A stretch of 64,000 nucleotides of DNA from a virus (IMGVR_UViG_3300032303_001195:28157-92156), one strand, 5' to 3'; shown: positions 1 to 20,400, numbered from the stretch's first letter. Notes: generated by a model not told the origin, from the sequence alone. Program-made: numbers and translations.

Positions 1-44
1 CTACCGTGACAGGGTAGTGCTCTAACCAACTGAGCTACAGAGCC
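1..44 (-). tRNA. tRNA-Asp(GTC), 5' part (3' end runs off the window)
   Basis: Reverse complement reads GGCTCTGTAGCTCAGTTGGTTAGAGCA-CTACC-CTGTCAC-GGTAG: canonical D-arm and anticodon stem-loop with GTC. Confidence 0.9.
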
Positions 45-58
45 ATTGTCCTATTGTA

Positions 59-220
59 TCAGGCATACTCCCGAATAGCAACCTGCTTGATTGCCCCACG
101 AGTCCTCTGACGGTTAGGTCGATTGTCGTGAGTGGTAGCCGCATTGGAACTACGCAGACCACGCATAGCAACAATGTATGCGGTGTTCTGAATCTTCTTG
201 GGTGCTGTCTTTTTCTTCAT
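59..220 (-). CDS. small basic hypothetical protein (53 aa, MKKKTAPKKIQNTAYIVAMRGLRSSNAA...), leaderless
   Basis: Hand translation; ATG lies 6 nt after a TAGTAT -10. Confidence 0.75.
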   Translation of the reverse strand: MKKKTAPKKIQNTAYIVAMRGLRSSNAATTHDNRPNRQRTRGAIKQVAIREYA

Positions 221-226
221 ATCTCA

Positions 227-248
227 ATACTAGCAGTGACCACTGACA
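227..248 (-). promoter_or_regulatory. RecA-NDp/PafBC-type promoter
   Basis: TGTCAGTG-N8-TAGTAT. Confidence 0.75.
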
Positions 249-312
249 TTGGAGGCATTTTTAGTAATATACTTAATAACATTCCGATAACGGATCGGGG
301 CGCCGCCCCCCC

Positions 313-441
313 CTAAAAGGGAGGTCGGTTCAGTAGTGCCTCATATTCGGCTTCCTTGTATTTCGTGTACAGGTACAGAATCACAAGGGTGTCGAACAGA
401 ATCACGCCCATCATTATGACGAACAGCCAAAATAGGTTCAT
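313..441 (-). CDS. small membrane protein (42 aa, MNLFWLFVIMMGVILFDTLVILYLY...)
   Basis: Hand translation; TAATG coupling to the upstream gene; one hydrophobic helix; stop abuts a GGCGCC element. Confidence 0.7.
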   Translation of the reverse strand: MNLFWLFVIMMGVILFDTLVILYLYTKYKEAEYEALLNRPPF

Positions 442-629
442 TAGTTCTCCTCGAAGTCATAGCAAGCGTTGATAAATACATTGCGTTGGAATCGCTCATT
501 GTCCTTAGCAAACATATCTGCGAAGTCATGAACAAGGTCAAGCATACGCTGTTCGTTACTGATTGGCATATCACCAATAAAATCAGCAAGAATGCTAGCG
601 GTTTCCACATAGTCTTTGCGTGTCATCAT
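441..629 (-). CDS. hypothetical phage protein (MTRKDY... type)
   Basis: ORF track; AAAGGA RBS and its own promoter upstream. Confidence 0.8.
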   Translation of the reverse strand: MMTRKDYVETASILADFIGDMPISNEQRMLDLVHDFADMFAKDNERFQRNVFINACYDFEEN

Positions 630-658
630 TTTAGTGTGTCCTTTTCTTTGTTGGTTTT

Positions 659-680
659 AGTTTACAGCAAGCCACCGACA
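659..680 (-). promoter_or_regulatory. RecA-NDp/PafBC-type promoter
   Basis: TGTCGGTG-N8-TAAACT. Confidence 0.75.
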
Positions 681-845
681 CTACGAACCGTAGACGGTCA
701 GCAGTGTGCGGTAGCCATTGGCACGACCCTCGCACCACGAAGCCATGCCTTCCATGCCAGCCTCACGGTACATGATTACATCAGCCTCGTTTTGCTCGGC
801 AAGCCACTCAAGCGATTCGACTGGGATAGTGATTGTGTTTTCCAT
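681..845 (-). CDS. hypothetical protein (54 aa, MENTITIPVES...)
   Basis: Start reassigned to ATG 845 after the conserved RBS ACGAAAGGAAAACT. Confidence 0.8.
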   Translation of the reverse strand: MENTITIPVESLEWLAEQNEADVIMYREAGMEGMASWCEGRANGYRTLLTVYGS

Positions 846-868
846 AGTTTTCCTTTCGTTGTATAACA

Positions 869-890
869 ACTGTATCAGTACCCACCGACA
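869..890 (-). promoter_or_regulatory. RecA-NDp/PafBC-type promoter
   Basis: TGTCGGTG-N8-TACAGT. Confidence 0.75.
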
Positions 891-952
891 TTGCAGGGCA
901 TTTACAGCGTGTTTCGTATAACGGTTTGATAACAGTCGGGGCGCCGCCCCTG

Positions 953-1174
953 CTAGTTGTAGCCCTCTACCCAAATATTTTCCTCTAACAGCATGTCCAC
1001 ATAGTCAGCGAAGCCACAGCGGTATGCGATTGGGTCACAGTTCTTGAGAATGTCTGCAGGGTAGAACTCTGAGTAGCCAATGGTCACAATGCCATAGCAA
1101 TCATTTAGATATGCGTCATAGTCATCTCGGGCTTGTTCTTCGGACAGGATTTCGTGCTTTGCGATTTCGTTCAT
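953..1174 (-). CDS. acidic hypothetical protein (73 aa), leaderless
   Basis: ORF track; ATG 6 nt after a TATAGT -10. Confidence 0.8.
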   Translation of the reverse strand: MNEIAKHEILSEEQARDDYDAYLNDCYGIVTIGYSEFYPADILKNCDPIAYRCGFADYVDMLLEENIWVEGYN

Positions 1175-1180
1175 ATAATG

Positions 1181-1202
1181 ACTATAACACTACCCACCGA
1201 CA
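1181..1202 (-). promoter_or_regulatory. RecA-NDp/PafBC-type promoter
   Basis: TGTCGGTG-N8-TATAGT. Confidence 0.75.
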
Positions 1203-1217
1203 GAGGTCGGCGCCCCC

Positions 1218-1430
1218 CTAATATCCATAGTCTTCGTCAGTACCCCAGCCAGCAGAGGCAAGAGCATCTGCATCCCACCAAGACTCGTCTGGCTCGTAGT
1301 CCTGAGACTCAAGAGAGTTGCCAGAGATGTCCCAATAGGCTTCGGTGTCCTCAACAGTCCACTCATTGCCGAGGTCGTCAAGGTAGGCGACAATCTCGTT
1401 ACCCTCACCAAAAATAGGCTCAAAAATCAT
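1218..1430 (-). CDS. highly acidic hypothetical protein (70 aa, ends DADALASAGWGTDEDYGY)
   Basis: ORF track; RBS ACGAAAGGATAACT. Confidence 0.8.
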   Translation of the reverse strand: MIFEPIFGEGNEIVAYLDDLGNEWTVEDTEAYWDISGNSLESQDYEPDESWWDADALASAGWGTDEDYGY

Positions 1431-1455
1431 TAGTTATCCTTTCGTTGTTATAACA

Positions 1456-1477
1456 AGAATAGCAGGGGGTACTGACA
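1456..1477 (-). promoter_or_regulatory. RecA-NDp/PafBC-type promoter
   Basis: TGTCAGTA-N8-TATTCT. Confidence 0.7.
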
Positions 1478-1518
1478 CTCCTCCGTAATTCACTTGGTAA
1501 GCGGATCGGCGCCGCCCC

Positions 1519-1611
1519 CTACCAGCGGAAGTCTTCCTGTTCGTCATACCATTCCTGGTAGACGTATTCGGTTCCACAGCCACAGCAGGGGCGGTCTTCA
1601 CATGTACACAT
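1519..1611 (-). CDS. Cys-rich micropeptide (30 aa, MCTCEDRPCCGCGTEY...)
   Basis: ATG 1611 follows RBS ACGAAAGG and its own promoter. Confidence 0.7.
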   Translation of the reverse strand: MCTCEDRPCCGCGTEYVYQEWYDEQEDFRW

Positions 1612-1638
1612 AGTGTGCCTTTCGTTTGGAGTGATAAA

Positions 1639-1660
1639 AGAATAGCAAGGGCTACCGACA
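1639..1660 (-). promoter_or_regulatory. RecA-NDp/PafBC-type promoter
   Basis: TGTCGGTA-N8-TATTCT. Confidence 0.7.
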
Positions 1661-1816
1661 CTACATGTTTCTAGTGTCAGCCTCAGCCACGATTTCCGCA
1701 TCAGGGAACACCTTGATACAGGTGGCACACAGTGCGACAGGGGTTTCTCGCAAGAAGCCAAGCTCAATAAGGTACACAGCGTCTCGGTGCTGGCAGAATT
1801 CACATTCGGGGTTCAT
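1661..1816 (-). CDS. CxxC..CxxC zinc-finger miniprotein (51 aa, MNPECEFC...LCATC...IVAEADTRNM)
   Basis: Hand translation; conserved RBS; paralogous to 2117-2287 and 3842-3988. Confidence 0.8.
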   Translation of the reverse strand: MNPECEFCQHRDAVYLIELGFLRETPVALCATCIKVFPDAEIVAEADTRNM

Positions 1817-1837
1817 AGTTTTCCTTTCGTTACCACT

Positions 1838-1859
1838 AGACTAGCATGACCCACCGACA
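1838..1859 (-). promoter_or_regulatory. RecA-NDp/PafBC-type promoter
   Basis: TGTCGGTG-N8-TAGTCT. Confidence 0.75.
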
Positions 1860-1977
1860 TTGGGGAAAATTTCCGAGGCGTTTTAATGCGCTTACGTAAA
1901 CTGATTTTGGAATGGTCGGGCGGCGCCGACCCCACCGACATTTGTCAAGCGACACGCCGATCGGGTTGACTTATTTT

Positions 1978-2109
1978 TCAGGGGCAGAAGGTCGCCCAAA
2001 ACAAAAGAATAAACCAATAGGCAGAGTACAAAATAGCAAAAGCCATACCAATGCGAACAACTGCCCTAGCGATACCACGAACAACATAGTAAGTCTTTGA
2101 GTGATTCAT
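1978..2109 (-). CDS. small membrane protein (43 aa, MNHSKTYYVVRG...)
   Basis: ATG 2109 after AGGAG RBS; hydrophobic C-terminal half. Confidence 0.7.
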   Translation of the reverse strand: MNHSKTYYVVRGIARAVVRIGMAFAILYSAYWFILLFWATFCP

Positions 2110-2116
2110 TATGCTC

Positions 2117-2287
2117 CTAGTCTGCAATCGGGAAGATATCAAGAATCGGGAAGGCAGTTTCCAATTCATCGCACACGATAGCATCGTGGCACTGTTGACA
2201 GACAGCGACAAAAGTCAGTTCGACAATTTCGGTGTCATACTCCAAGACTTCACGAGCCTCACGGTAGTCACAGATTTCACATTCCAT
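2117..2287 (-). CDS. CxxC..CxxC zinc-finger miniprotein (56 aa, MECEIC...VCQQC)
   Basis: Hand translation; conserved RBS ACGAAAGGAAAACT. Confidence 0.8.
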   Translation of the reverse strand: MECEICDYREAREVLEYDTEIVELTFVAVCQQCHDAIVCDELETAFPILDIFPIAD

Positions 2288-2312
2288 TAGTTTTCCTTTC
2301 GTTTACGTTTTG

Positions 2313-2334
2313 ATTCTAACAGCACCCACCGACA
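2313..2334 (-). promoter_or_regulatory. RecA-NDp/PafBC-type promoter
   Basis: TGTCGGTG-N8-TAGAAT. Confidence 0.75.
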
Positions 2335-2370
2335 TTCACATACGCGACACGCCGATAACCCAGAAAAAAG

Positions 2371-2401
2371 TTATCCACATCTTAAATAAAAGTTATCCAC
2401 A
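2371..2401 (+). promoter_or_regulatory. pair of perfect DnaA boxes
   Basis: TTATCCACA at 2371-2379 and 2393-2401. Confidence 0.75.
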
Positions 2402-2439
2402 GGGCGGCGCCGCCCCCTGCGACATTTGTCAAGTCCTGG

Positions 2440-2799
2440 CTAGGCGTTTCGCAAATATTCCATTGCCCTAGCGATGCGGTCTAAATCATCTTGGAACACG
2501 CCCAAGCCACGGTTACAGTTGTGGCAGATGTGTCCACGGAATGCACCTGTACCGTGGTCGTGGTCTACTACCCACACCGATGCGTTGCCACCTGTTCCCT
2601 TTAGTTCATCTTCTGACTTCAGGCAGATAGGGCAGGTGTGTCCCTGTTCGGGGTAGCCATACTCTTTACGCAGAGCACGACGCTCACTAGACAACTTACG
2701 ACCACAGTCACGGCACTCAGGTCGCAGGTACTTGCCACCAGAGGCAGGGGAGAATGAAGCGTGAGGTAGGGACTCTTGGCACTTGGAACAGGTTTTCAT
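2440..2799 (-). CDS. endonuclease VII-like (His-Me finger) nuclease with N-terminal Zn finger
   Basis: CSKC...[31 protein letters not shown] motif; leaderless ATG 2799 is 7 nt after a TAAAGT -10. Confidence 0.85.
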
Positions 2800-2806
2800 A
2801 GGTTTC

Positions 2807-2828
2807 ACTTTACGCTAGGGTACTGACA
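2807..2828 (-). promoter_or_regulatory. RecA-NDp/PafBC-type promoter
   Basis: TGTCAGTA-N8-TAAAGT. Confidence 0.7.
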
Positions 2829-2891
2829 TTGTGGTAAGCGACACGCCGATTACAGGAAAATTTTCAAGGCATTTTAATGGATCTACGTAAA

Positions 2892-2910
2892 TGTGGATAA
2901 GTTATCAACA
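2892..2910. promoter_or_regulatory. back-to-back DnaA boxes
   Basis: TGTGGATAA 2892-2900 (perfect, reverse) and TTATCAACA 2902-2910 (1 mismatch). Confidence 0.65.
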
Positions 2911-3004
2911 GGCGGCGCCGATTTTTTTGGAATACGCAAACCGACACGCCGTGTATTCCAAAATTGGCATATGCGAGAGATCCCGATTTGGGGAGGGTAG
3001 TCTG

Positions 3005-3142
3005 CTAACTAGCAAACTCGCCCTCTTCACGCATGATAGCGAAACGCTCGCTAATCAGGCAAGGCTTACAGATAAGCCATTCACCATGTGCGGACACATA
3101 GACAGTCTCTACAGACTTTTCACAAACTTCACAAATTTTCAT
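3005..3142 (-). CDS. CxxC-x17-CxxC zinc-finger miniprotein (45 aa, MKICEVC...LICKPC)
   Basis: Hand translation; RBS AGAAAGGAAAACT. Confidence 0.8.
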   Translation of the reverse strand: MKICEVCEKSVETVYVSAHGEWLICKPCLISERFAIMREEGEFAS

Positions 3143-3159
3143 TTTGAGTTTTCCTTTCT

Positions 3160-3315
3160 TTACTTGAGAGCGTCAAGCATACGCTCGAACGCCTCTTCGG
3201 TTAGTGACACGGTAGCCATGCCGATTACGAATGGGTAAGCCTCTGTGCGAGACTTGAGGTTGTACTTAGCGACACAAGCGTCAAGCACCTGATTCATCAT
3301 TTCTGATTTTTCCAT
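3160..3315 (-). CDS. hypothetical protein (51 aa, MEKSEMMNQVLDAC...SLTEEAFERMLDALK)
   Basis: Hand translation; RBS AGAAAGGT. Confidence 0.75.
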   Translation of the reverse strand: MEKSEMMNQVLDACVAKYNLKSRTEAYPFVIGMATVSLTEEAFERMLDALK

Positions 3316-3337
3316 TTTAGTTTTACCTTTCTTTAGC

Positions 3338-3426
3338 GAGTGAGACTTATTTGCTCTGAGACTTATTTGCTAGGCTCACCTTTCGGATTATTTGCTAGGC
3401 TCATTCTCTGAGGCTCATTCTCACTC
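3338..3426 (-). ncRNA. candidate structured 5' leader RNA with three copies of an internal-loop module
   Basis: Closing stem GAGUGAGA/UCUCACUC, two UGAGCCUAGCAAAUAA repeats around CC-GAAA-GG, plus a split third copy. Confidence 0.6.
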
Positions 3427-3451
3427 TGTGTAGTTTTTATCTTATGTCTTG

Positions 3452-3480
3452 AGACTATCAGACATTATCTGAAAAGTCAA
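3452..3480 (-). promoter_or_regulatory. sigma70/SigA-type promoter with upstream GACAC box
   Basis: TTGACT-N17-TAGTCT; CGACACGCCG at 3483-3492. Confidence 0.7.
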
Positions 3481-3511
3481 GCCGACACGCCGTGTTTGCG
3501 AAAAAAAGTTT

Positions 3512-3619
3512 TTATTTCTTTTCTGCCATGAATGCGACCATCAAGCCAAGCAATTCTTCCTGGCTCATGTCTTCCATGTCCTGAACACCTTCGGTGGTGA
3601 TTACCTTCATGAAACCCAT
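3512..3619 (-). CDS. micropeptide (35 aa, MGFMKVITTEGVQDMEDMSQEELLGL...)
   Basis: Hand translation; RBS GAAAGGAG and its own promoter. Confidence 0.75.
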   Translation of the reverse strand: MGFMKVITTEGVQDMEDMSQEELLGLMVAFMAEKK

Positions 3620-3645
3620 TTGGTTTCTCCTTTCTATCTGTAAAC

Positions 3646-3667
3646 AGACTAACAGTACCCACCGACA
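3646..3667 (-). promoter_or_regulatory. RecA-NDp/PafBC-type promoter
   Basis: TGTCGGTG-N8-TAGTCT. Confidence 0.75.
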
Positions 3668-3724
3668 TTCGACCCCCTGTTTTTCCATCTAGGGGAAATT
3701 TTTAGGTAAACATAAGGTAAATTC

Positions 3725-3745
3725 TTATCCACAAAGTTATCCACA
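3725..3745 (+). promoter_or_regulatory. pair of perfect DnaA boxes
   Basis: TTATCCACA at 3725-3733 and 3737-3745. Confidence 0.75.
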
Positions 3746-3841
3746 GGGGGGCGCCGCCCCCACCGACATTTGTCAAGTCGACACGCCGTGTTTGTCAAAA
3801 TTAGTTTGTGGTCGATCCACGAGCCACCAACAGGCGACACC

Positions 3842-3988
3842 CTAGTTTCGGGTATCAGCCTCAGCGACTATGTAGTGAGGCGTAGTCATGCGAGACTCGC
3901 AACGCACACACACATAGGTAGGCATGGACTCCATCATCATCATGATTTCGAGAGTAGCCTCATAGTATTCACAGAATGTACAGGTCAT
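3842..3988 (-). CDS. CxxC..CxxC zinc-finger miniprotein (48 aa, MTCTFC...VCVRC...IVAEADTRN)
   Basis: Hand translation; conserved RBS; same C-terminal IVAEADTRN as 1661-1816. Confidence 0.8.
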   Translation of the reverse strand: MTCTFCEYYEATLEIMMMMESMPTYVCVRCESRMTTPHYIVAEADTRN

Positions 3989-4011
3989 AGTTTTCCTTTC
4001 TTTGTATTTAC

Positions 4012-4033
4012 AGTATGACATAGGGTACTGACA
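4012..4033 (-). promoter_or_regulatory. RecA-NDp/PafBC-type promoter (variant -10)
   Basis: TGTCAGTA-N8-CATACT with extended TG. Confidence 0.6.
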
Positions 4034-4234
4034 CTACAGTACGGTCACCTTGTTTCCAAGGGTAGCGTAGGCAGTAGTGCCATTAGTAAAAGTAACCTGA
4101 CAGGTAGTACCGTTCAGTCCTTTCACGTTAGCGATAACACCTGTGTAGTGAAACACAGGTCCAAACGGATAAGGCTTGTTGCTGAACGCAACACGCTTTC
4201 CGATTAGGGATTTGATTTTTTGAGTGTAAGTCAT
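4034..4234 (-). CDS. basic beta-rich hypothetical protein (66 aa)
   Basis: ORF track; RBS GAAAGGAAG. Confidence 0.8.
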   Translation of the reverse strand: MTYTQKIKSLIGKRVAFSNKPYPFGPVFHYTGVIANVKGLNGTTCQVTFTNGTTAYATLGNKVTVL

Positions 4235-4256
4235 GATTGACTTCCTTTCTTTTTAG

Positions 4257-4316
4257 GAGGGATTTATTTGCTAGGCTCATTCCCGATTGGGACTTATTTG
4301 CTAGGCTCACTCCCTC
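4257..4316 (-). ncRNA. candidate structured 5' leader RNA with two copies of the internal-loop module
   Basis: GAGGGA/UCCCUC closing stem; two UGAGCCUAGCAAAUAA repeats (4264-4279, 4294-4309) around a UCCC-AAUC-GGGA hairpin. Confidence 0.6.
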
Positions 4317-4329
4317 GTGACTTACTTAC

Positions 4330-4351
4330 AGTATCGCAGTACCCACCGACA
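4330..4351 (-). promoter_or_regulatory. RecA-NDp/PafBC-type promoter (variant -10)
   Basis: TGTCGGTG-N8-GATACT with extended TG. Confidence 0.6.
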
Positions 4352-4409
4352 TTGGAGGGCATTTTAGTAGGGGTTTCACCCTATTTTTAGGTTAACGTAA
4401 GTATAAAGT

Positions 4410-4430
4410 TCATCCACAGAGTTATCCACA
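4410..4430 (+). promoter_or_regulatory. pair of DnaA boxes
   Basis: TCATCCACA 4410-4418 (1 mismatch) and TTATCCACA 4422-4430. Confidence 0.7.
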
Positions 4431-4473
4431 GGGCGGCGCCGCCGCCTCAAACATTTGTCAAGGCGACACGCCG

Positions 4474-4578
4474 TTAGGCGTTCATTTTCTTTTTGGTCAG
4501 AGCTAGCAACTCTTCGAATTCCAATTCAGTCATGTACTCACCCTTAGCAATGAGCATGAGTTCTTGATAGCGTGACAT
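4474..4578 (-). CDS. micropeptide (34 aa, MSRYQELMLIAKGEY...)
   Basis: Start reassigned to ATG 4578 after RBS ACGAAAGGT and its own promoter. Confidence 0.75.
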   Translation of the reverse strand: MSRYQELMLIAKGEYMTELEFEELLALTKKKMNA

Positions 4579-4603
4579 TAGTTTACCTTTCGTTAGTGTT
4601 TTG

Positions 4604-4625
4604 ATTTTAGCAGGTGGTACTGACA
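4604..4625 (-). promoter_or_regulatory. RecA-NDp/PafBC-type promoter
   Basis: TGTCAGTA-N8-TAAAAT. Confidence 0.7.
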
Positions 4626-4703
4626 CTAGAGTCCGAATATCTTTACCAAGATAACGAACACGAGGGTTAGTACCGATACTGTGAATGAGACGATAGCGAG
4701 CAT
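4626..4703 (-). CDS. hydrophobic micropeptide (25 aa, MLAIVSFTVSVLTLVFVILVKIFGL)
   Basis: Hand translation; RBS GAAAGGT; fills the slot between two promoters exactly. Confidence 0.65.
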   Translation of the reverse strand: MLAIVSFTVSVLTLVFVILVKIFGL

Positions 4704-4734
4704 TTGAGTTATTACCTTTCTTTGTTATGACTAT

Positions 4735-4756
4735 AGTCAATCACTAACCACCGACA
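4735..4756 (-). promoter_or_regulatory. degenerate RecA-NDp-type promoter (first of the array)
   Basis: TGTCGGTG-N8-TTGACT; an alternative TATAGT lies 5 nt further on. Confidence 0.45.
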
Positions 4757-4927
4757 TTAGCAATGCGACACGCCGATAAGTGAAAAAATAAAAAAAAGAA
4801 AGTTTTGGGGGTGTGTAGTGGTGTGCTCACTATAGTCGACCCCCCCATAGGCTATTTTTTCTGTATCGTTCATCTTTAAAAAATATTCAGATTTTCATCA
4901 AATCCAAAATAAAAAATTTTTCAGATT

Positions 4928-5041
4928 TTAGCCATACACAGATTTAAGAATCAGGATCACCAGGGTGTACGATAGGACAATAGCCACAGCACCTGCGAGG
5001 ATCAATCCGATATTTTTCAGGGCAGACAAAATCTTCGTCAT
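4928..5041 (-). CDS. small membrane protein (37 aa, MTKILSALKNIGLILAG...)
   Basis: Hand translation; ATGA coupling with the upstream gene. Confidence 0.6.
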   Translation of the reverse strand: MTKILSALKNIGLILAGAVAIVLSYTLVILILKSVYG

Positions 5042-5211
5042 GCTGTGATTGTTTCGGGGGTACGGTTAACAAGTCCATAATGCAAAGCCCATATAGTAAT
5101 AAGCTTGTATGAAACCTTCTGCTCTTTGCTGATAGCACGAACACTCTTGGTTTCTAGCTCTTTAGCGAGCCAATCTTTGTTTTCATAGTTTTTTACTTTG
5201 ACTGGATCCAT
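5038..5211 (-). CDS. small helix-turn-helix protein (57 aa, NYENKDWLAKELETKSVRAISKEQKVSYKLITIW)
   Basis: Hand translation; RBS AAGGAGAG; same pattern as 59823-59981. Confidence 0.75.
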   Translation of the reverse strand: MDPVKVKNYENKDWLAKELETKSVRAISKEQKVSYKLITIWALHYGLVNRTPETITA

Positions 5212-5221
5212 TATTCTCTCC

Positions 5222-5365
5222 TTAGAATGAGTCGGCGTCAGGAATTAAGTTTATGTCATGGCAAATGCAATATTCTGGATCTCCATTAAAGATGCAGACG
5301 CATTCTTCTGATTTGTTAAGGTTTAAAACTTCGGGGGTATCACAAGAACAATTACCATTACACAT
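5222..5365 (-). CDS. Cys-rich small protein (47 aa, MCNGNCSC...CVC...CIC)
   Basis: Hand translation; leaderless after a TATAAT -10. Confidence 0.6.
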   Translation of the reverse strand: MCNGNCSCDTPEVLNLNKSEECVCIFNGDPEYCICHDINLIPDADSF

Positions 5366-5378
5366 AGTAATAATTATA

Positions 5379-5573
5379 TCACCATTTACCAACAGGACAT
5401 GTAGCAGCTTCTAGCTTTGTTTTAAGCTTCATGAAGCATCCACACTTTGTACAAGAAACTGTTAGCTTATTCAAGAAAGGACATTCAAAACAAATTGCTA
5501 GTCTTTCTTTTTGTAATTCTTCTTTTGATCTAGGTTCATTTGGATTCAATAGGTCCCAAGGCTTAACACTCAT
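5379..5573 (-). CDS. small Cys-rich metal-binding protein (CFEC..CTKCGC..CPVGKW)
   Basis: ORF track; Cys pattern common in phages; leaderless after TGTTATACT. Confidence 0.8.
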   Translation of the reverse strand: MSVKPWDLLNPNEPRSKEELQKERLAICFECPFLNKLTVSCTKCGCFMKLKTKLEAATCPVGKW

Positions 5574-5977
5574 ATATCAAGTATAACACTTCGGATGGTT
5601 TATTTTTCGAGGGTATACAACAGCCAAAGGCTGTCTTGATCAAACACACATAGTGATAATTACTCTTGATCAAACATAAGAAATCCCCCTATACTAATAT
5701 AAGGGGAAATCTATTTGGGGGTTTGCTGGTTTCCGATTTGTTAATCAAACCTGAATGGCATGACTGGGGTCTTATCCAGGATATCACAAAAATCTCATAT
5801 CAGAGTAGCTCCGCTATCATACATATTTGTCTATTTGGATGTTTCATCTGTTTGGACATAGTGTATGGGGTACTTCTCGCCGCCGATTTTTACCGCCGAA
5901 CAATAGGAGCTTAATTAGTTATATGTTATAAACAGGGTGTGGATAACTTTATAAAATACCTGTATAATTATACTATT

Positions 5978-6280
5978 ATGCAGTGGTACGAATGGATTCC
6001 AATTCTATTAGGTATTATCGGTATAACCACAGCTATTCTTGCAGCAATCAGATTCTTTATCAAATATCATGTAAAAGAAGAGATGGAAGATATCAGGCAT
6101 GAACTCAAACCAAATGGTGGATCTTCAATAAAAGACCAAATAACCAGAGTTGAAGCCTCACAAAAAGATTTTGTAGAACGTCAACATCAAGATGATGCAA
6201 AGTTTGAAAAACGACTTGATAAACTTGAAAGTAAGATCGACGATGTGCTGAAGATTGTTATTGAGAAACTTTCTAGCTAG
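5978..6280 (+). CDS. single-TM coiled-coil membrane protein
   Basis: N-terminal TM helix then coiled coil; start reassigned to ATG 5978. Confidence 0.75.
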   Translation: MQWYEWIPILLGIIGITTAILAAIRFFIKYHVKEEMEDIRHELKPNGGSSIKDQITRVEASQKDFVERQHQDDAKFEKRLDKLESKIDDVLKIVIEKLSS

Positions 6281-6437
6281 GATTCTTTATCCTATATTCT
6301 TTCTAGCCTAATATTATTCTCTTCCCAATTATTACAATTATACACATACAATTACCGTTCTTGATATCAAAATCTCAAATATTTTATAACGATTTGATAA
6401 CAAATACATATCGTTACCAATATGTTATAATTGTTTT

Positions 6438-6495
6438 GACTAGTAACCAGGGTTTCTCTCTCACACCCACTTCCTTGGTTACTAGTCTTTTTGTT
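6438..6495 (+). ncRNA. candidate hairpin small RNA / terminator
   Basis: TGTTATAAT promoter at 6423-6431, 12-bp stem GACTAGTAACCA/TGGTTACTAGTC, CU-rich loop, U-tract. Confidence 0.45.
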
Positions 6496-6523
6496 TTAGA
6501 ATAAATGATATACTTATACTACT

Positions 6524-6909
6524 ATGAGTTTAAATTGTTGCCCCGAACCATTTGGTGCTGATCCTGCACAAATTACTTGGAATGTTGTTAGAGGAGATAC
6601 AGCATCTATTGTTATTCAGTTTTTAGAAAACGATGAAGTTACTTATACTGATACATCTGGTTGGGCTTATATAGCTACTGCTTATGATCAAAAAGCTGAT
6701 GCATATTATGAACTAGATGTACTTGAAGATTCAGGATTTGTAACTGTTACTGCATTACCTGCTGTGACTGAACAGTGGGGTACTGGTATTAAGTCTAAGG
6801 TAGCAGAATTATCATTTGATCTTCAAGTTACAACTAATGATGATATTGTTTGGACACCTGTTATTGGTGTGATTAATGTTATTGGTGACGTAACTGAGGT
6901 GACACTTTA

Positions 6910-6910
<1 letters not shown>
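6524..6910 (+). CDS. virion structural protein, BppU-like beta-sandwich
   Basis: V(V)RGDT start and FDLQVT...G.I.V..DVT end; precedes the fibre gene. Confidence 0.6.
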
Positions 6911-11882
<4,972 letters not shown>

Positions 11883-11883
<1 letters not shown>

Positions 11884-12878
11884 TGACTGGTCATTTAAAA
11901 GTTGGTGGTGCATGGAAATCTACTACAGCTATAAGTACTAAGGTATCTGGAGCCTGGAAAACAGTAACAGAAGGCTGGGTAAGAGTTGGTGGTGTTTGGA
12001 AAAAATGGTATCAACCGTTCACTGTTGACTTTCTAGTTATTGCAGGTGGTGGTAGTGGAGGTCAGTCTCAGACTCCTGCTGGTGTTGCTTCTGGTGGTGG
12101 AGGTGCTGGTGGATACAGAACATCTGTTGGAACATCTGGTGGAAGCTCATCTGCTGAGTCAGCAATAACATGTTTTTATGGTCAAACATATACCGTTACG
12201 GTTGGAGCAGGAGGAGCTGGACTCAACGCTGGTAATGGTAACAAGGGAAGTGACTCTAACTTTGGAGACTTAGTAGTTTCTACTGGTGGTGGTTTTGGGC
12301 GTAACGGTACAAATAACACTGGTGGGTCTGGTGGTTCGGCTGGTGGAAACGGTGTCGGTACAGGTGGAACTCCAGCAACAGTAACCTCTGGAACAACTGG
12401 TCAAGGAACATCTGGTGGTCTTGGATACAATGGCGGTTCAGCCTCTACAGTTGGTGCAGGTGGTGGTGGTGGAGCATCTACGTCTGGACTAAAAGATGCA
12501 ACAAGTACTAGAGCTGGTAACGGTGGAACAGGACTTGCTAACTCAATTACAACATTATCTGTAACTAGGGGTGGTGGTGGAGGAGGTGCTCCATCAACAG
12601 GCTCAACAACTTTTACTAATGGTACAGCTGGAACAGGTGGTGGATCTGCTGGTACAAGAAGTGCATCAAGCTCTAATGCAACTCAAAATACAGGTGGAGG
12701 TTCTGGTGGTTCTACTGGTTCAGGGTTTACTAGTGGTAATGGTGGCTCTGGTGTAGTGATTATTAGGTATCCAAACACCTTGCCAGCAGCTACATCAACA
12801 ACTGGATCTCCAGACATTACAAACACTGGAGGGTATAGAGTTTATGTATTTACAGGAGATGGGAGCATAACTTTCTAA
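11883..12878 (+). CDS. glycine-rich virion/fibre protein
   Basis: LVIAGGGSGG..GGGGAGG..GNGGSGVVIIRY pattern; TAATG coupling. Confidence 0.8.
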
Positions 12879-13152: not shown

Positions 13153-14199
13153 ATGAAAATAGCAATTTACACTATAGCCTTAAATGAAGAACAGTTTATA
13201 GAAAAGTGGTACGAGTCTGCAAAGGATGCTGACTACTTACTTGTTGCAGATACTGGTTCTACTGACAATACCGTTGAAAAAGCAAAAGAGCTTGGTATTA
13301 ACGTTATCGGCATCTCAGTTAAGCCATGGAGATTTGACGTAGCAAGAAACGCATCTCTCGCACACATTCCAGCAGATATCGACTATTGCATTGCTCTTGA
13401 TATGGATGAAGTACTACTTCCTGGTTGGAGAGAAAAGCTAGAGGGTATGCTAGAAAAAGGAATTACTCGTCCAAGATATAAATATACATGGTCATGGAAT
13501 GAAGACGGTACACCAGGATTAGAGTATGGTGGCGACAAGATTCATGCAAGACATGGATATGTTTGGAAGCATCCTGTTCACGAAGTAATCGTTGCTGATC
13601 GAATTACTGAGGTGCAGTGTTGGAGTGATCTTGAGATTCATCATTATCCAGATCAATCAAAATCAAGAAGTCAGTATCTTCCACTTCTTGAGCTTTCTGT
13701 TAATGAAGATCCAACAGATGATAGAAATGCTTATTACTATGCTCGTGAACTATTTTTTGTCGGGGAATATGAAAAAGCAAACGAAGAATTTAAACGACAC
13801 CTATCTCTACCAAAAGCAGTATGGCAACCTGAACGTGCAGCATCAATGAGATACATTGCAAAATGTGGAATAGAAGATGCAGAATATTGGATTAAACTTG
13901 CTATTAAAGAAAGTCCTGGAAGAAGAGAGCCATTAGTTGAATTAGCACAATTATATTATAAAAATCAAGATTGGGAAAATTGCAAAATATACTGTTTAGC
14001 AGCTTTAGCTATTAAAGAAAAGCCACTAGATTATTTGTGTGAAGACTTTGCTTGGGGATATTTACCATATGACTTGCTTGCAATTTCTTACTATTATTTA
14101 GGTGATAAAGAGAATGCTTTAAAATATGGCAAAAAAGCATTTGAACTAAATAAGTCAGATCAAAGACTTATGAATAACTTATCTTTTTATAAAGGTTGA
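13153..14199 (+). CDS. family 2 glycosyltransferase with TPR repeats
   Basis: IALNEE, DTGSTD, F..ARN, LDMDE, WKHPVHE motifs; C-terminal TPRs. Confidence 0.9.
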   Translation: MKIAIYTIALNEEQFIEKWYESAKDADYLLVADTGSTDNTVEKAKELGINVIGISVKPWRFDVARNASLAHIPADIDYCIALDMDEVLLPGWREKLEGMLEKGITRPRYKYTWSWNEDGTPGLEYGGDKIHARHGYVWKHPVHEVIVADRITEVQCWSDLEIHHYPDQSKSRSQYLPLLELSVNEDPTDDRNAYYYARELFFVGEYEKANEEFKRHLSLPKAVWQPERAASMRYIAKCGIEDAEYWIKLAIKESPGRREPLVELAQLYYKNQDWENCKIYCLAALAIKEKPLDYLCEDFAWGYLPYDLLAISYYYLGDKENALKYGKKAFELNKSDQRLMNNLSFYKG

Positions 14200-17493: not shown

Positions 17494-20400
17494 ATGAAAT
17501 CTCAATCTAACCTTTATGCAGATAGGATACTTCTAGAGCATCCTAATGCTATTTGGGCATTAGACGATACCGTTGATTTTTTATCACTTATTTATGGTGA
17601 CAAAAGAAACTTATCTTTTACGAGTTTTTGGACTGTTTCTGGGGTAAGTCCATTAAGTGTAACCCTAGAAAATGCAAGTAATATACCTACAGTTCCATTT
17701 CCAGAAGACTATATAAATAAAATAGTAAACACTTCTTCTGGATCAATTTCTTTTGCTGGAAATAATCTTATTCAAAGATCATCTTTAAGTGAAGATTTAG
17801 AAAATATAACACTAAGTTTTTATACATACATTGAGGGATCTGTTGGTTCAAATACAAAAGCAAAACTAGGTTTTGACTATGGAGATTACTCAGTTAGACA
17901 AGAAATAGATATAGATGTTGCTAATACTTGGGTATTTATTTCTAAAACATTTGAGTTACCTAGTTACACATATTATCCAGATAATTATTTTGAACCATTT
18001 ATTGGTTTTACAAATTTAAATAATTCTAATAAAAAGATCTATGTAAATGGAATTACTTTTGGTCAATTATCAGAAGAGTTTGCTCCAACATCTTTGGGTT
18101 CTATTTCAACTTTTACATACCCTTCAGATTTCCCAATTAATTTAGGTAGTACTGGAGTAGTTGCAAAAAAATATGGAAACTTTAAAACAGACCCACAAGT
18201 AAGCGATGGGGTATATGTTATCGAAAATGGTAAAATTTTAGCAAAAAATTCGGGAATACCGATGATCTATGGTGCTAAAAATGTTACTATGCTTAGTCCT
18301 AGTAGTTCTGAAAATCCATCACTAGTTTTACCTGGTTTTGGATTTCTTCATAACTCAGGCAAAAACAGAGATATGTCTATTGATTTTTGGTTAAGAATAA
18401 ATCCACATACCTCAATTCCTAAGAAAATTTTTGGACCAATAGCTTCTAGTGATGGACTCTACGTTGATGGATCATTTTTAATTTGGAAAATTGGAAAATA
18501 CTTTGGGTCATACTATGTTTCAGAATGGTATAGACCAATGCTTGTTAGCTTAATATACACAGCATCACATTCATCTGTAATGGTTAATGGAAAAGAAGTT
18601 ATACTTTTAAATTTTGAATATGACGATAAAACTAATACAAATGATTTAGATTTTCCAAAAAATAAATTTGAAGTAAATAATTCTGGAGCTACTATAAAAA
18701 CCAAAAACTATAACTGGCTAGGTTTTTATTGTTATGAAGATATTTTTCAAATGGAGCTAGACTGTGTTGGTATTTATTCATATGAAATTCCGTCCACATT
18801 ATCCAAAAGAAGATGGGCATATGGACAAGCAGTTGAATTTCCAGAAGGTATTATTTCAGATAATGGAGGAACATCAACTGTAGTAGATTTTCCATCTGCA
18901 AATTATGTAAATAATTTTAACTACCCAGCACAAAATAAATGGGAACATGGAATTATGGATGCAGTTGCATCTATCAATGACACACTATCTTCTACAGCTT
19001 ATTCAGCACCAGAAGTCTACTTTGATAATAAAACAGAAGTTGAATGGCAAGCCACGATACAGGATACTAAAAATATTTGTTTAGTACCGACTCCAGACTG
19101 GGAAAATACAAACGGATATATAACATTTGGAAAGTTAAGATCTTTTAGAGATAATATCGTTTCTATTTATGGAGTTTTTCAAATACCAATTAACTTAACC
19201 TCTACACAAATTCTTTTTAAGTTATTTGATGAAAATACAGGCAGCTATCTACAATCAACCATTGACTCAACTGGTAGTCAGTTACAATATGACTTTTATT
19301 CTGCATATACTGATCTTCACACTACTTGGTCTTATGACAATATATCTGATATAGATTTAAGAGGTACAAGCATTAATGCAGGTATATGTTTTAATTCTTT
19401 AACTACTACTGATGGAAACCAACAAGAGTTAGCAAACTTTATTAATAATAAACAAAGACTTTCTGTTTATGTTGGTGGAAATGAACTTTTTACAAATACA
19501 TTTACTGGAGTTATTGAAAATTTCTCATTCGTAAATAATAGAAATTTCTTAGAGTTAGACGGATCTCCATTTATTAATTCTGCAGGATTCTTTTTTAACA
19601 ATATCCAGTACAATAGCTCAATACTAATTTATGATGGTGGATCATATAATACAAGTACCTGGGATTTTGATGTAGATGGAGGTAGTCCAGAAACTACATA
19701 TATTTATAATGACTCAGCTTCACCAACATCAGTTCCAGAAACATATACAGTAATTGATGGTGAGAATTTCAATACAGAAAGTCTATCTATTGTAGATGGT
19801 GGAAGTTATAATACAACATCTTGGACATCTATTTATGATGCTGGAACTCCAGTATTACAAATTTCTGGCGGTATGTTAAACAATAGCCTAATGGATCGCT
19901 ATGCAACATACTCATTATTTGGAAAATCATACCTAGAAAGTTTTGAATTATCTATTGCATCTAATGGATATTGGGAAGACTATATTCCACTGAAATCGTT
20001 AGCTAAAAAAATAAATGATTCTACTTATGATCTGTCTTATCTTCAGTTCAATGTTGGTTATCCAAAACCAGTAAAATATCTTTCATCTACTGCATATGAC
20101 ACTACAAAGTCTTCTGTAAGAACATATATAAGCTTTCAACAAAACAATGCAAACAGAAATCTTGTTTTTACCACAACAGTAGAGCCAAAGATTCAGGGTC
20201 TTCATAATATCAATAACACAATGATTCAGTCAGATAAAAGATTTGAGGTTGTTGATGGTGACGTAATTAATATAGTTGACTTAACAACACAAGAAATTGA
20301 AAATCTTTATCTCGTTATTCATGTTGAACTTAATAGTCCAGATATTTTAACTAGACCAATTAGAATAAAGAGTCTACAAATTGCAGGTAAAACAAATACA

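Follow-up and report, generated by a model that had tools for sequence, protein, structure and literature searches.

A conserved GGCGCC word in a shuffled array of early mini-gene cassettes from an uncultured lake actinophage

RESULTS AND DISCUSSION

Nine GGCGCC elements in an array of promoter-bearing small genes

The window analyzed here is a 64,000-nt stretch (positions 28157-92156) of a 92,156-bp IMG/VR contig record that is ~85% complete and derives from an uncultured actinobacterial phage of lake origin, a siphovirus with relatives among Streptomyces phages. A minus-strand block of small genes, encoding 25 to 122 amino acids (aa) each, occupies positions 59-5211 and is the window's share of an array in which each gene or every few genes has its own promoter and a GAAAGGA-type Shine-Dalgarno (SD) sequence. 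No informative Pfam match was found for the small array proteins.

GGCGCC occurs nine times in the window, with starts exactly where the initial annotation had placed them (299, 940, 1209, 1508, 1922, 2406, 2914, 3750, and 4435), compared with a mean of 1.84 and a maximum of 5 in 100 dinucleotide-preserving shuffles, none of which reached nine. All nine sites lie within 299-4440, and the earlier impression that the word is missing from the other ~59 kb was correct, as no copy was found in the remaining 59.5 kb of the window. Contig-wide, 17 of 17 sites fall in contig positions 19828-32596; the GGCGCC array runs 8.3 kb further left than the window edge, and the whole array comprises ~13 kb of early mini-gene cassettes.

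The elements differ in form and setting. E09 (299-304), which is followed by CCGATCCGTTATCGG, and E08 (940-945) both have the form GGGGC-GGC-GCCCC and lie 8 and 7 nt past a minus-strand TAG stop codon, respectively; E07 (1209-1214; GGCGCCGACC form) lies 3 nt past a TAG and 6 nt ahead of a promoter block, and E06 (1508-1513; GGCGCCGATC form) lies 5 nt past a TAG. These four are the copies that had been noted beside stop codons. Four of the remaining elements lie within longer repeated blocks. On the minus strand, the E05 hexamer (1922-1927) lies within a 43-nt block (1918-1959) that reads CGGCGTGTCG-CTTGACAAATGTCGGTGGGG-hexamer and is 93% identical to the block of E02, while the E04 hexamer (2406-2411), part of the 14-bp perfect palindrome GGGCGGCGCCGCCC, lies within a 47-nt repeated block (2389-2435) followed by two TGTGGATAAC boxes. 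E03 (2914-2919) has the form AAAAAATC-GGCGCC-GCC and no stem; together with E04 it flanks a minus-strand gene for a 122-aa endonuclease VII (EndoVII)-family protein (2440-2808) and its promoter. The hexamers of E02 (3750-3755) and E01 (4435-4440; palindrome GGCGGCGCCGCC) lie within 94-nt minus-strand composite repeats (3698-3789 and 4383-4474) that are 85% identical to each other, and E01 is followed by two TGTGGATRA boxes.

Twelve promoter blocks of the pattern TGTCRGTR-N8-YAnnnT, all on the minus strand, are distributed between 227 and 4625 (227-248, 659-680, 869-890, 1181-1202, 1456-1477, 1639-1660, 1838-1859, 2313-2334, 2807-2828, 3646-3667, 4012-4033, and 4604-4625). The pattern occurs 13 times in the window, against 0.33 expected, and the 12 occurrences in the window's part of the array are all on the coding strand. 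By sequence, these promoters conform to the RecA-NDp/PafBC-type consensus published for actinobacteria, tTGTCRgtg-8 nt-TannnT (PMC5656591); a profile search of the ~85% complete contig found no WYL-domain gene.

Read on the minus strand, a module consists of a GC dyad, factor-type boxes (TGTGGATAAC pairs, TTACG, and CGGCGTGTCG), a RecA-NDp-like extended -10 promoter, an SD sequence, and one to five small genes, with the dyad ahead of the promoter by 6 to over 90 nt and often preceded by a separate gene-end hairpin. This established anatomy agrees in its order with the unit proposed by the initial annotation, running from one GGCGCC through boxes, promoter, ribosome-binding site, and genes to the next, with the qualification that promoter blocks outnumber elements. 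Many internal promoters begin directly at a stop codon with no GGCGCC, and no recognizable promoter block follows the last element (contig 19828).

The hexamer is conserved and the stem is dispensable

The hexamer is intact at 20 of 20 orthologous slots compared with the relatives L007 and L008, whereas the 30-nt flanks of the same slots are 70.6% identical (892 of 1,264 columns). At flank substitution rates, 20 intact hexamers have a probability of ~7e-19, a value to be read with the caveat that the slots are not phylogenetically independent. The six letters are under purifying selection.

Among 48 surveyed elements (17 + 15 + 16), Watson-Crick stems reach at least 5 bp in 17, 4 bp in 14, and at most 3 bp in 17. 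Thus, 31 elements can form a stem of 4 bp or more, usually GGGGC-GGC-GCCCC, and the other 17 cannot. Several elements read AAAAAATC-GGCGCC-GCC, and five of the seven copies in L088 are the loop-less 10-bp palindrome GGGGCGCCCC. A GAYC extension is found on the 3' side in 20 of the 48 and, as TC, on the 5' side in 11, and its presence on either side indicates that the orientation of the element is not fixed. The flanks are G rich on the 5' side (48% G) and C rich on the 3' side (40% C), giving the consensus GGG(C)-GGCGCC-(G/C)CCC; 16 of the 48 elements lie no more than 12 nt from a stop codon. The conserved part of the element is the hexamer and not a hairpin.

In these arrays, the 40-nt stretch upstream of each hexamer tends to fold more stably than random windows do (median, -8.2 versus -5.6 kcal/mol; P = 2.6e-8). 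In a scan of L005 for intrinsic terminators, no GGCGCC element scored as a minus-strand stem plus T-run, and the sole match adjoining an element was the neighboring CCGATCCGTTATCGG stem. In L050 and L068, a canonical terminator with a T-run stands immediately upstream of the GC word.

The slot word varies with the avoidance of GC palindromes

Palindromic GC 4-mers are strongly purged from the contig, with 0 GGCC, 0 CCGG, 5 CGCG, and 28 GCGC (17 of the 28 within elements), against expectations of 137 by composition and 37 to 96 by Markov models; nonpalindromic GC 4-mers stand at 0.18 to 0.97 in the same comparison. Outside the elements, GCGC is depleted about 10-fold. The selection on the hexamer in the face of this contig-wide purge supports the earlier suggestion of sites retained on purpose. 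Of the hexamer palindromes made only of G and C, GGCGCC alone contains none of GGCC, CCGG, and CGCG, and we propose that it was chosen because no other is compatible with avoiding these three. The choice of word seems to be forced by the phage's purge of restriction-type palindromes.

Across lineages, the slot word varies in step with the GC-palindrome purge. In the close relative L009 (GP88, 94% identical), GCGC and CGCG are purged instead, and GGCC/CCGG-rich words have taken the place of the core between conserved flanks, with stems of 8 to 10 bp in these slots. Where the purge profile is different again, the slot holds GGGCCC, RGCGCY, or TCGA- or GCCGAC-type words, and the L030 word is nonpalindromic and present in both orientations. 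GGCGCC is missing from 65 of 80 loci, and many relatives have few or no GC-hexamer palindromes. The purge rule would permit several words in L050 and L070, and yet both use only GGGCCC, which that rule does not explain on its own.

Cassettes are shuffled between relatives along extended repeats

The initial annotation described self-contained cassettes that are gained, lost, and reordered, and comparison of relatives bears this out. Cassettes 1 to 4 of this contig correspond to cassettes 3, 5, 4, and 6 of L007, and the unit [GGCGCC]-promoter-EndoVII-[GGCGCC] has a different context in each of three genomes and is not present in other relatives.

Its further proposal, that the GGCGCC elements themselves are the crossover points, is not supported. 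Several homology breaks do fall at the hexamer edge: contigs of relatives have loose ends at 1214 (E07, the exact point at which the homology of one relative's contig ends) and at 3749/3751 (E02), homology restarts at 2911 (E03), and high-scoring segment pair (HSP) ends at contig positions 31911, 30568, 29374, and 32599 coincide with hexamer edges. Of 89 distinct HSP ends, 14 lie near an element, against 5.9% expected, although part of this enrichment is trivial because elements sit just past stops; comparisons that span an element show rearranged adjacency in 11 of 35 cases, versus 4 of 36 elsewhere. However, bare promoters with no GGCGCC are sites of exchange as well. The hexamers of reordered cassettes lie in blocks of 43 to 94 nt that are 85 to 94% identical to one another, with E01, E02, E04, and E05 being clearly paralogous repeats, whereas most hexamers bordering collinear cassettes share only 12 to 24 nt, and the cassettes bordered by bare hexamers (E06 and E08 to E15) are collinear in three genomes. 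Reordering therefore tracks extended repeat homology, and, given that it takes place at bare promoters too, the hexamer does not suffice as a crossover site.

Comparison with known cassette systems

Among known systems, the array most closely resembles the mobile regulatory units of T4-type phages known as promoter-early stem-loop (PeSL) cassettes (Arbiol et al. 2010, PMC2839356; Comeau et al. 2014, PMC4122927); it is an analogue of these cassettes and not one of them. Going by the portions of these accounts drawn on here, both systems have repeated intergenic composites that extend from the upstream stop codon to the SD or start and combine a GC dyad (G-tracts followed by C-tracts) with a strong early promoter. 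Both lie in a plastic region of small ORFans in which close relatives differ by cassette insertion, deletion, or replacement, and no dedicated recombinase is known for either. PeSL recombination proceeds via ~100 bp of conserved sequence, as it appears to do here via the 43- to 94-nt repeats, so that the shuffling idea is not new in kind (PMC2839356). The systems differ in that PeSL belongs to T4-type myoviruses and has sigma-70 consensus promoters, whereas this array belongs to an actinobacterial siphovirus with RecA-NDp-like extended -10 promoters. The PeSL dyad lies within the promoter, and here it lies upstream of it. The PeSL composite includes a stem-loop; here promoter, stop, and SD are present, as is a stem of 4 bp or more in 31 of the 48 copies. 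What is conserved here is a palindromic word of 6 bp that endures even where no stem can form, is lineage specific, and follows the restriction-type palindrome purge. Formation of mini-circles is a further trait ascribed to PeSL cassettes.

Among cultured phages, Streptomyces BE1 phages have a counterpart of the array in their ~11-kb terminal-repeat early module. The part of the genome announcement of Mildred21 (MF155946; cluster BE1, Stanwilliamsviridae) considered here mentions no motifs (PMC5764925). Its DnaE-type polymerase and portal are 55% and 46% identical, respectively, to those of this phage, and both genomes carry, in syntenic order on one strand, ThyX, an HNH gene, numerous small genes, a GP88-like gene, and the gene for a 340-aa protein. 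The gaps in both (110 to 230 nt) contain a gene-end GC hairpin, a GC-rich palindrome, boxes, and an extended -10 promoter. In Mildred21, 14 of 15 gaps carry the sequence-invariant, palindrome-like TGTCCGG-S-CCGGACA and 11 of 15 carry a UUCG/GAAA-loop hairpin with a variable stem, indicating that hairpin and palindrome are separate parts there. Unlike this contig, Mildred21 has a 15-bp palindrome full of CCGG, conventional -35/-10 promoters, and no purge of GC palindromes (87 GGCC and 77 CCGG in 12 kb).

Integron attC arrays similarly have small cassettes in a row, and the imperfect palindrome repeated between them is uniform inside any one array but not from lineage to lineage. However, attC repeats measure 57 to 141 bp and border promoterless cassettes, whereas here the repeats measure 6 to 13 bp, each cassette has a promoter, and reordering depends on extended homology. 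Integrons also have an adjacent tyrosine-recombinase integrase; as the initial annotation had supposed, none was found here in a PF00589 search of the 92-kb contig, which is ~85% complete. In the temperate cluster A mycobacteriophages, the repressor sites known as stoperators are 13 bp long, asymmetric, and orientation dependent. Like the elements described here, these short sites are numerous and lie close to gene ends within an actinophage early arm, and cluster A mycobacteriophages also carry a GP88-like gene; this contig differs in its symmetric 6-mer and in having no integrase or HTH_3 repressor match.

Interpretation of the element

We tentatively favor the reading that selection maintains GGCGCC as the core of a short dyad, made only of G and C, that marks the upstream border of each complex regulatory module. 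The hexamer would function in double-stranded form, as a palindrome recognized by a putative dimeric protein of phage or host, which might insulate or silence the module border or nick or resolve DNA there. Shuffling would be ordinary homologous recombination between repeated modules, of which the hexamer is the best-conserved stretch, and the array would be the actinophage analogue of PeSL cassettes. A search for candidate readers on the ~85% complete contig gave no match to an integrase, a C5 or N4/N6 methyltransferase, HTH_3, WYL, sigma region 4, or Lsr2. Against a protein reader, 6 bp is short for a regulator's operator, and a specific reader would need a new specificity at each change of purge profile. 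More speculatively, and in our estimation rather improbably, GC-only border palindromes (GGCGCC, GGGCCC, CCCGGG, CCGG/GGCC-rich, and TCGA centered) could serve phage early modules in general as a punctuation code, read by a putative structure- or sequence-specific protein (phage or host encoded, with a resolvase, nickase, or restriction fold) to insulate and exchange cassettes and rewritten at every slot when the host restriction repertoire changes. Regulatory punctuation would then co-evolve with restriction avoidance; the many relatives with few or no GC-hexamer palindromes imply that punctuation of this kind is not universal.

The stems, the G-rich and C-rich flanks, and the proximity to stops also fit an RNA hairpin, and it is possible, if somewhat unlikely, that the element is the RNA (or single-stranded DNA) stem-loop half of a PeSL-type cassette, in which a G-run/C-run hairpin attenuates read-through or protects a 3' end and the hexamer is merely the center. 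In the relevant part of the PeSL study, PeSL stem-loops were shown to terminate transcription, and those with polyG...polyC arms lowered lacZ expression like a strong terminator; its authors also described GGGG...CCCC stems and speculated that a specific DNA-binding protein targets them (PMC2839356). Arms of G-run/C-run type are found in one lineage after another around a center that ranges from 0 to ~11 nt, and L009 has its 8- to 10-bp stems at these slots. The RNA reading fits poorly, however, with the 17 elements whose stems are 3 bp or less, with the conservation of the hexamer letters and not the arms, and with the lack of a coding-strand T-run after the element. The loop-less L088 form and the L030 word speak against it as well, and where a separate terminator or UUCG hairpin is present, the GC word comes after it.

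The initial annotation's reading, in which GGCGCC by itself would serve as a dedicated joint for crossover or insertion that a putative enzyme cuts or pairs, with no integron integrase, would account for the homology breaks at hexamer edges, the excess of HSP ends and rearranged adjacencies, and the element-bounded EndoVII unit. The PeSL authors raised the same idea and, in the portion of their paper used here, cited T4 deletions at GGGC...GCCC (PMC2839356). We nonetheless consider such a joint improbable, given the collinearity of the bare-hexamer cassettes, the long homology shared by reordered ones, the exchanges at promoters without elements, and the absence of a recombinase match on the ~85% complete contig; moreover, 6 bp is far below known site-specific recombination sites. 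Retention as a restriction/modification target (NarI/KasI type), serving as a methylation-sensing switch or a source of restriction breaks that stimulate exchange, would fit a type II-like palindrome under selection amid a GC-palindrome purge and the different type II-like words kept by different lineages, but seems very unlikely. Profile searches of the ~85% complete contig for methyltransferases (PF00145 and PF01555) found nothing, and sites for a host enzyme would be costly: the depletion of GCGC outside the elements suggests that the phage meets GCGC-cutting hosts, which would make the 17 retained sites a liability and not a tool. Finally, the paralogous repeats at E01, E02, E04, and E05 are what would be expected if a functionless hexamer had been copied with duplicated regulatory modules and homogenized by gene conversion. 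We disfavor this account as scarcely credible, since the hexamer is 100% conserved among flanks that for most copies are either unrelated or just 71% conserved, has withstood a strong purge, and in L009 had its core exchanged in place.

Layout of the GGCGCC array and depletion of GC palindromes

The GGCGCC array is strongly non-random. All nine copies listed in the initial annotation of the window (at 299, 940, 1209, 1508, 1922, 2406, 2914, 3750, and 4435) are exact, with none in the rest of the 64-kb window, and dinucleotide-preserving shuffles gave a mean of 1.84 and a maximum of 5 copies. The window covers bases 28157 to 92156 of a 92,156-bp IMG/VR record. That record holds 17 copies, all inside contig positions 19828 to 32596, and the array extends 8.3 kb past the left edge of the window. 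As had been noticed at the outset, four of these nine copies sit close to a stop codon, and the order within a unit, read on the minus strand, runs from the element through boxes, promoter, and RBS to small genes. The four copies are 3 to 8 nt past a TAG, the genes of this stretch are on the minus strand, the SD is of the GAAAGGA type, and a unit holds one to five small genes. Promoter blocks outnumber elements, and many internal promoters start right at a stop codon without GGCGCC. Small minus-strand ORFs continue to about position 5573, and plus-strand genes start near 5939; an AT-rich, gene-poor stretch at 4780 to 5000, close to the head of that block, contains a G-run/C-run inverted repeat (GGGGGTGTG...CCCCCCC).

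GGCC and CCGG are absent from the contig, CGCG occurs 5 times, and GCGC occurs 28 times (17 of them within the elements), against expectations for each of 137 by composition and 37 to 96 by a Markov model; among GC-only 4-mers, the non-palindromic ones reach 0.18 to 0.97 of expectation. Further, 21 hexamer palindromes are absent despite expectations of at least 5, including CACGTG, CTCGAG, GAGCTC, GCATGC, GGTACC, and GTGCAC, and the only enriched ones are CTGCAG and GGCGCC. CTGCAG, with 32 copies versus 12.6 expected, is spread across the genome. We infer that the purge of GC palindromes represents restriction-site avoidance. Among the eight GC-only hexamer palindromes, GGCGCC alone contains none of GGCC, CCGG, and CGCG.

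Words at cassette borders in related viruses

Relatives were sampled as 80 loci fetched with the GP88-like protein, and 598 related stretches were confirmed in IMG/VR. Among the 80 loci, L007 and L008 alone have GGCGCC arrays; 13 others have one or two copies, and 65 have none. Other words hold the slots (cassette-border positions with a GC word) elsewhere: GGGCCC in L034 to L036, L050, and L070, GGGCCC together with CCCGGG in L068, GGCCGG...CCGGCC in L009, RGCGCY in L012 and L073, GGGGTCGAYCCCC in L024, and GCTGCCGACC, in both orientations, in L030. The GC-palindrome word GGCCGGCC, from unchecked notes on other phage DNA, is not used as evidence here.

The purge profile is lineage specific, and the slot word is compatible with the profile of its own lineage. 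The clearest case of a word following the profile is L009, whose GP88 is 94% identical: GCGC and CGCG are purged, GGCC and CCGG are allowed, and at orthologous slots a CCGG/GGCC-rich core substitutes for GGCGCC in place, with conserved flanks. The purge rule accounts for the choice of word, not for the need of one. In L050 and L070, three words are permitted, and GGGCCC alone is used. It is a testable point that the slot word should be predictable from a phage's purge of restriction-type palindromes. Upstream of one element, a conserved stretch at contig positions 24590 to 24680 (window about −3570 to −3480), CCTGAG...GTCTA.GTAAACTGCTCA, follows a 149-aa gene and is also present at the matching slots in L007 to L009.

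Selection on the hexamer rather than the stem

We examined 48 elements (17 from the source contig, 15 from L007, and 16 from L008). The common form, GGGGC-GGC-GCCCC, could fold into a 5-bp stem and a 3-nt loop, and yet Watson-Crick pairing extends to 5 bp or more in only 17 of the 48, to 4 bp in 14, and to 3 bp or fewer in 17; some of the stem-less elements read AAAAAATC-GGCGCC-GCC. The profile over all 48, GGG(C)-GGCGCC-(G/C)CCC, loses information rapidly beyond the hexamer, with a GAYC extension 3′ of it in 20, the mirror (TC) 5′ in 11, and TGTGGATAA-type boxes after the element in 12. Orthologous slots were compared where the arrays are collinear: 20 of 20 comparisons show an intact hexamer, and the 30-nt flanks are 70.6% identical; at flank rates, 20 intact hexamers would have P ~7e-19, a value computed over slot comparisons that are non-independent. 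In L088, five of seven copies are a loop-less, perfect 10-bp palindrome, GGGGCGCCCC.

A canonical intrinsic terminator was rejected, as no T-run follows the element on the coding strand, and an Rfam search (E ≤ 0.1) over contig positions 14001 to 34000 returned tRNAs only, with no family at the elements. A hairpin promoter for a virion RNA polymerase, of the N4- or crAss-like kind, might be read into GGGGC-GGC-GCCCC; it was set aside because the phage is a siphovirus and encodes both a tape measure and a DnaE-type polymerase. Because the hexamer is kept while its flanks diverge, the stem is often missing, and the T-run is lacking, selection acts on the six letters rather than on a stem, and does so even where the stem cannot form.

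Structure is concentrated on one side of the word. Upstream of the hexamer, the adjoining 40 nt have a median folding energy of −8.2 kcal/mol, versus −5.6 kcal/mol in random array windows (p = 2.6e-8), and reach −10 kcal/mol or lower in 19 of the 48 elements; no such excess of structure is seen in the 40 nt downstream. Immediately ahead of the GC word, L050 and L068 carry a canonical terminator. At the tightest slots, 3 to 8 nt past a stop, the G-run, hexamer, and C-run may double as a gene-end hairpin.

The phage and its cultured relatives

The contig is linear and about 85% complete (CheckV). Plus-strand genes of the window specify a 2351-aa tape measure, a portal, a protease, a collagen-like tail fibre, and a DnaE-type polymerase, and the nearest named relatives are Streptomyces siphoviruses of about 130 kb (55% identity for the polymerase and 46% for the portal). 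Genes for tRNAs and a tmRNA are present on the contig as well; the tmRNA gene (contig 13378 to 13709, minus strand) and a WhiB-like gene (contig 4964 to 5134, plus strand), both left of the window, fit an actinobacterial host and BE1-type relatives. Metagenomes containing DNA of the array stretch are from freshwater and lakes, with small shares in most.

Array genes include those for a DUF932 protein, a GP88-family protein, and an endonuclease VII-family protein, with ThyX further down; among ten small array proteins, DUF6171 was the sole Pfam match. A family of paralogous 45- to 56-aa proteins with two CxxC pairs (zinc-ribbon-like) has three to four members in the array (minus strand, 3842 to 3988, 3005 to 3142, 2117 to 2287, and 1661 to 1816) and also occurs in relatives. 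The GP88-like gene is found in cluster A mycobacteriophages as well, and in Streptomyces BE1 phages it occurs twice per record, 4 to 5 kb from the genome end. BE1 phages are described as having direct terminal repeats of about 11 kb with 20 to 25 small ORFs (PMC5764925). With the GP88-like gene so placed, the array is the counterpart of the terminal-repeat early module of actinobacterial phages.

In one such cultured phage, Streptomyces phage Mildred21, the terminal 12 kb (record positions 1 to 12059) have a palindrome-like site, TGTCCGG-S-CCGGACA, in 14 of 15 gaps longer than 60 nt. In 11 of these 15 gaps, the palindrome is closely preceded or overlapped by a GC stem whose loop is UUCG, UCCG, or GAAA; CGGACAT boxes come after the palindrome, as does an extended −10 of the form TGnTAGACT. 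The hairpin stems vary in sequence and keep their pairing, and the palindrome keeps its letters; gene-end hairpin and palindrome are here two separate parts. The available portion of the Mildred21 announcement mentions neither palindrome, hairpins, boxes, nor promoters (PMC5764925). The upstream structure in our arrays and the terminator ahead of the word in L050 and L068 favor GGCGCC as the probable counterpart of this invariant palindrome. As their syntenic array keeps hairpin and palindrome separate, the cultured BE1 phages offer a laboratory system for finding any reader of the palindrome.

Cassette shuffling

To follow the cassettes, the arrays of the source contig, L007, and L008 were cut at GGCGCC and the pieces were matched. 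Cassettes 6 to 16 are collinear in all three, with the element retained at every border, and cassettes 1 to 4 of the source contig correspond to cassettes 3, 5, 4, and 6 in L007 and to 4, 3, 5, and 4 in L008. A unit of element, promoter, endonuclease VII-family gene, and element occurs in three different contexts, with 99% amino acid identity between the source contig and L007; L009 lacks it, as do relatives in three metagenome runs. Judged from these comparisons, the gene (window 2440 to 2808, minus strand) behaves as a mobile unit. In other freshwater metagenome contigs, window positions of about 2335 to 2911 are missing, with homology back at 2911, and homology breaks off at the element edges 1214 and 3749/3751; these breakpoints were read with several short-sided joints between repeated motifs (such as 4474 to 3725 and 3751 to 4764) left out.

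Rearranged adjacencies number 11 of 35 across an element versus 4 of 36 elsewhere, scored only as rearranged or not because the ORF caller places spurious ORFs in long regulatory regions and makes indel classes unreliable. A test of HSP end points was diluted, as most HSPs lie within two conserved genes, and was partly trivial, as elements follow stops. Exchange is also seen at bare promoters (families f13, f14, and f15 are split in L007), and further breaks fall at promoters and repeated leader/SD sequences. The reordered elements E01, E02, E04, and E05 are embedded in blocks of 43 to 94 nt that are 85 to 94% mutually identical, versus 12 to 24 nt in common with any other element for E03, E06, E08, E09, and E12 to E15, so that reordering tracks extended homology, as proposed for the promoter-early stem-loop (PeSL) cassettes of T4-type phages. 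The initial proposal of a shuffling array is therefore borne out insofar as cassettes are reordered between relatives, but GGCGCC is not a sufficient crossover site, given the exchange at bare promoters and the extended homology.

Relation to known systems

Readings of the array as an integron, a stoperator system, intrinsic terminators, or targets of a phage-encoded restriction-modification system each fall short on a defining feature. A scan of the contig for a lysogeny repressor/stoperator system, phage methylase, WYL, sigma factor, and Lsr2 found none of these, and only the WhiB-like gene was recovered. The closest known arrangement is the PeSL, in which an upstream stop is followed by a stem-loop (often polyG and then polyC) with a sigma-70 early promoter and then by SD and start; PeSLs lie in ORFan regions and are conserved over about 100 bp, and they are described as terminators of transcription in a reporter assay and as mediators of modular shuffling and of mini-circles (PMC2839356). 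By analogy, our array may work like a PeSL system, and the concept of portable linkers that shuffle genes matches what is already known as PeSL. The array is not itself a PeSL member: it belongs to another type of phage and uses another class of promoter, its dyad stands apart from the promoter, and its word is retained in stem-less copies.

What is new is that selection acts at the level of the hexamer, that the word depends on a restriction-type purge, that the promoters are of the RecA-NDp type, and that the array is linked to the terminal-repeat module of cultured Streptomyces phages. In the openly accessible article texts searched on intergenic GGCGCC in phages, on intergenic repeats of actinophages, and on terminal repeats of Stanwilliamsviridae or cluster BE, the elements of this array are undescribed. 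The PeSL principle, in which portable promoter/dyad linkers shuffle small early genes, is extended here from T4-type myoviruses to actinobacterial siphoviruses, in a clade that is large and mostly uncultured.

Promoters and regulatory boxes

The window contains 13 copies of the motif TGTCRGTR-N8-YAnnnT, versus 0.33 expected; 12 are minus-strand copies within the array. Blocks matching TGTCRGTG-N8-TAnnnT number about 30, at window positions 227 to 4625 on the minus strand and contig positions 21980 to 28024, and are predicted to drive the early mini-genes. The array promoter blocks fit the RecA-NDp consensus, quoted as tTGTCRgtg-8nt-TannnT (PMC5656591), and PafBC is reported to act via this motif (PMC6789036). 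This suggests that the phage may use a PafBC-type, LexA-independent DNA-damage promoter class of its host for its first genes.

Element-to-promoter distances, examined for helical phasing, cluster largely owing to orthology. A fixed TTGACA-GGCGCC spacing was rejected as a rule: it is 15 nt in four copies because these are paralogous, and 13 to 28 nt in other lineages. Pairs of TGTGGATAAC boxes, which we take to resemble the E. coli DnaA box, directly follow four elements (window 2371 to 2400, 2895 to 2911, 3725 to 3746, and 4410 to 4431); in L050, L068, and L070, their position is occupied by TGTGA-N6-TCACA, presumably a CRP/GlxR-like site. The CGGCGTGTCG box, usually just ahead of TTGACA, has eight copies, all on the minus strand at 1950 to 4775 and confined to the promoter-proximal part of the array. 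Repeated TTATTTGCTAGGCTCA-type units are found in two 5′ leaders (window 3338 to 3420 and 4262 to 4316), and contigs from four of four metagenome runs break or diverge at such units.
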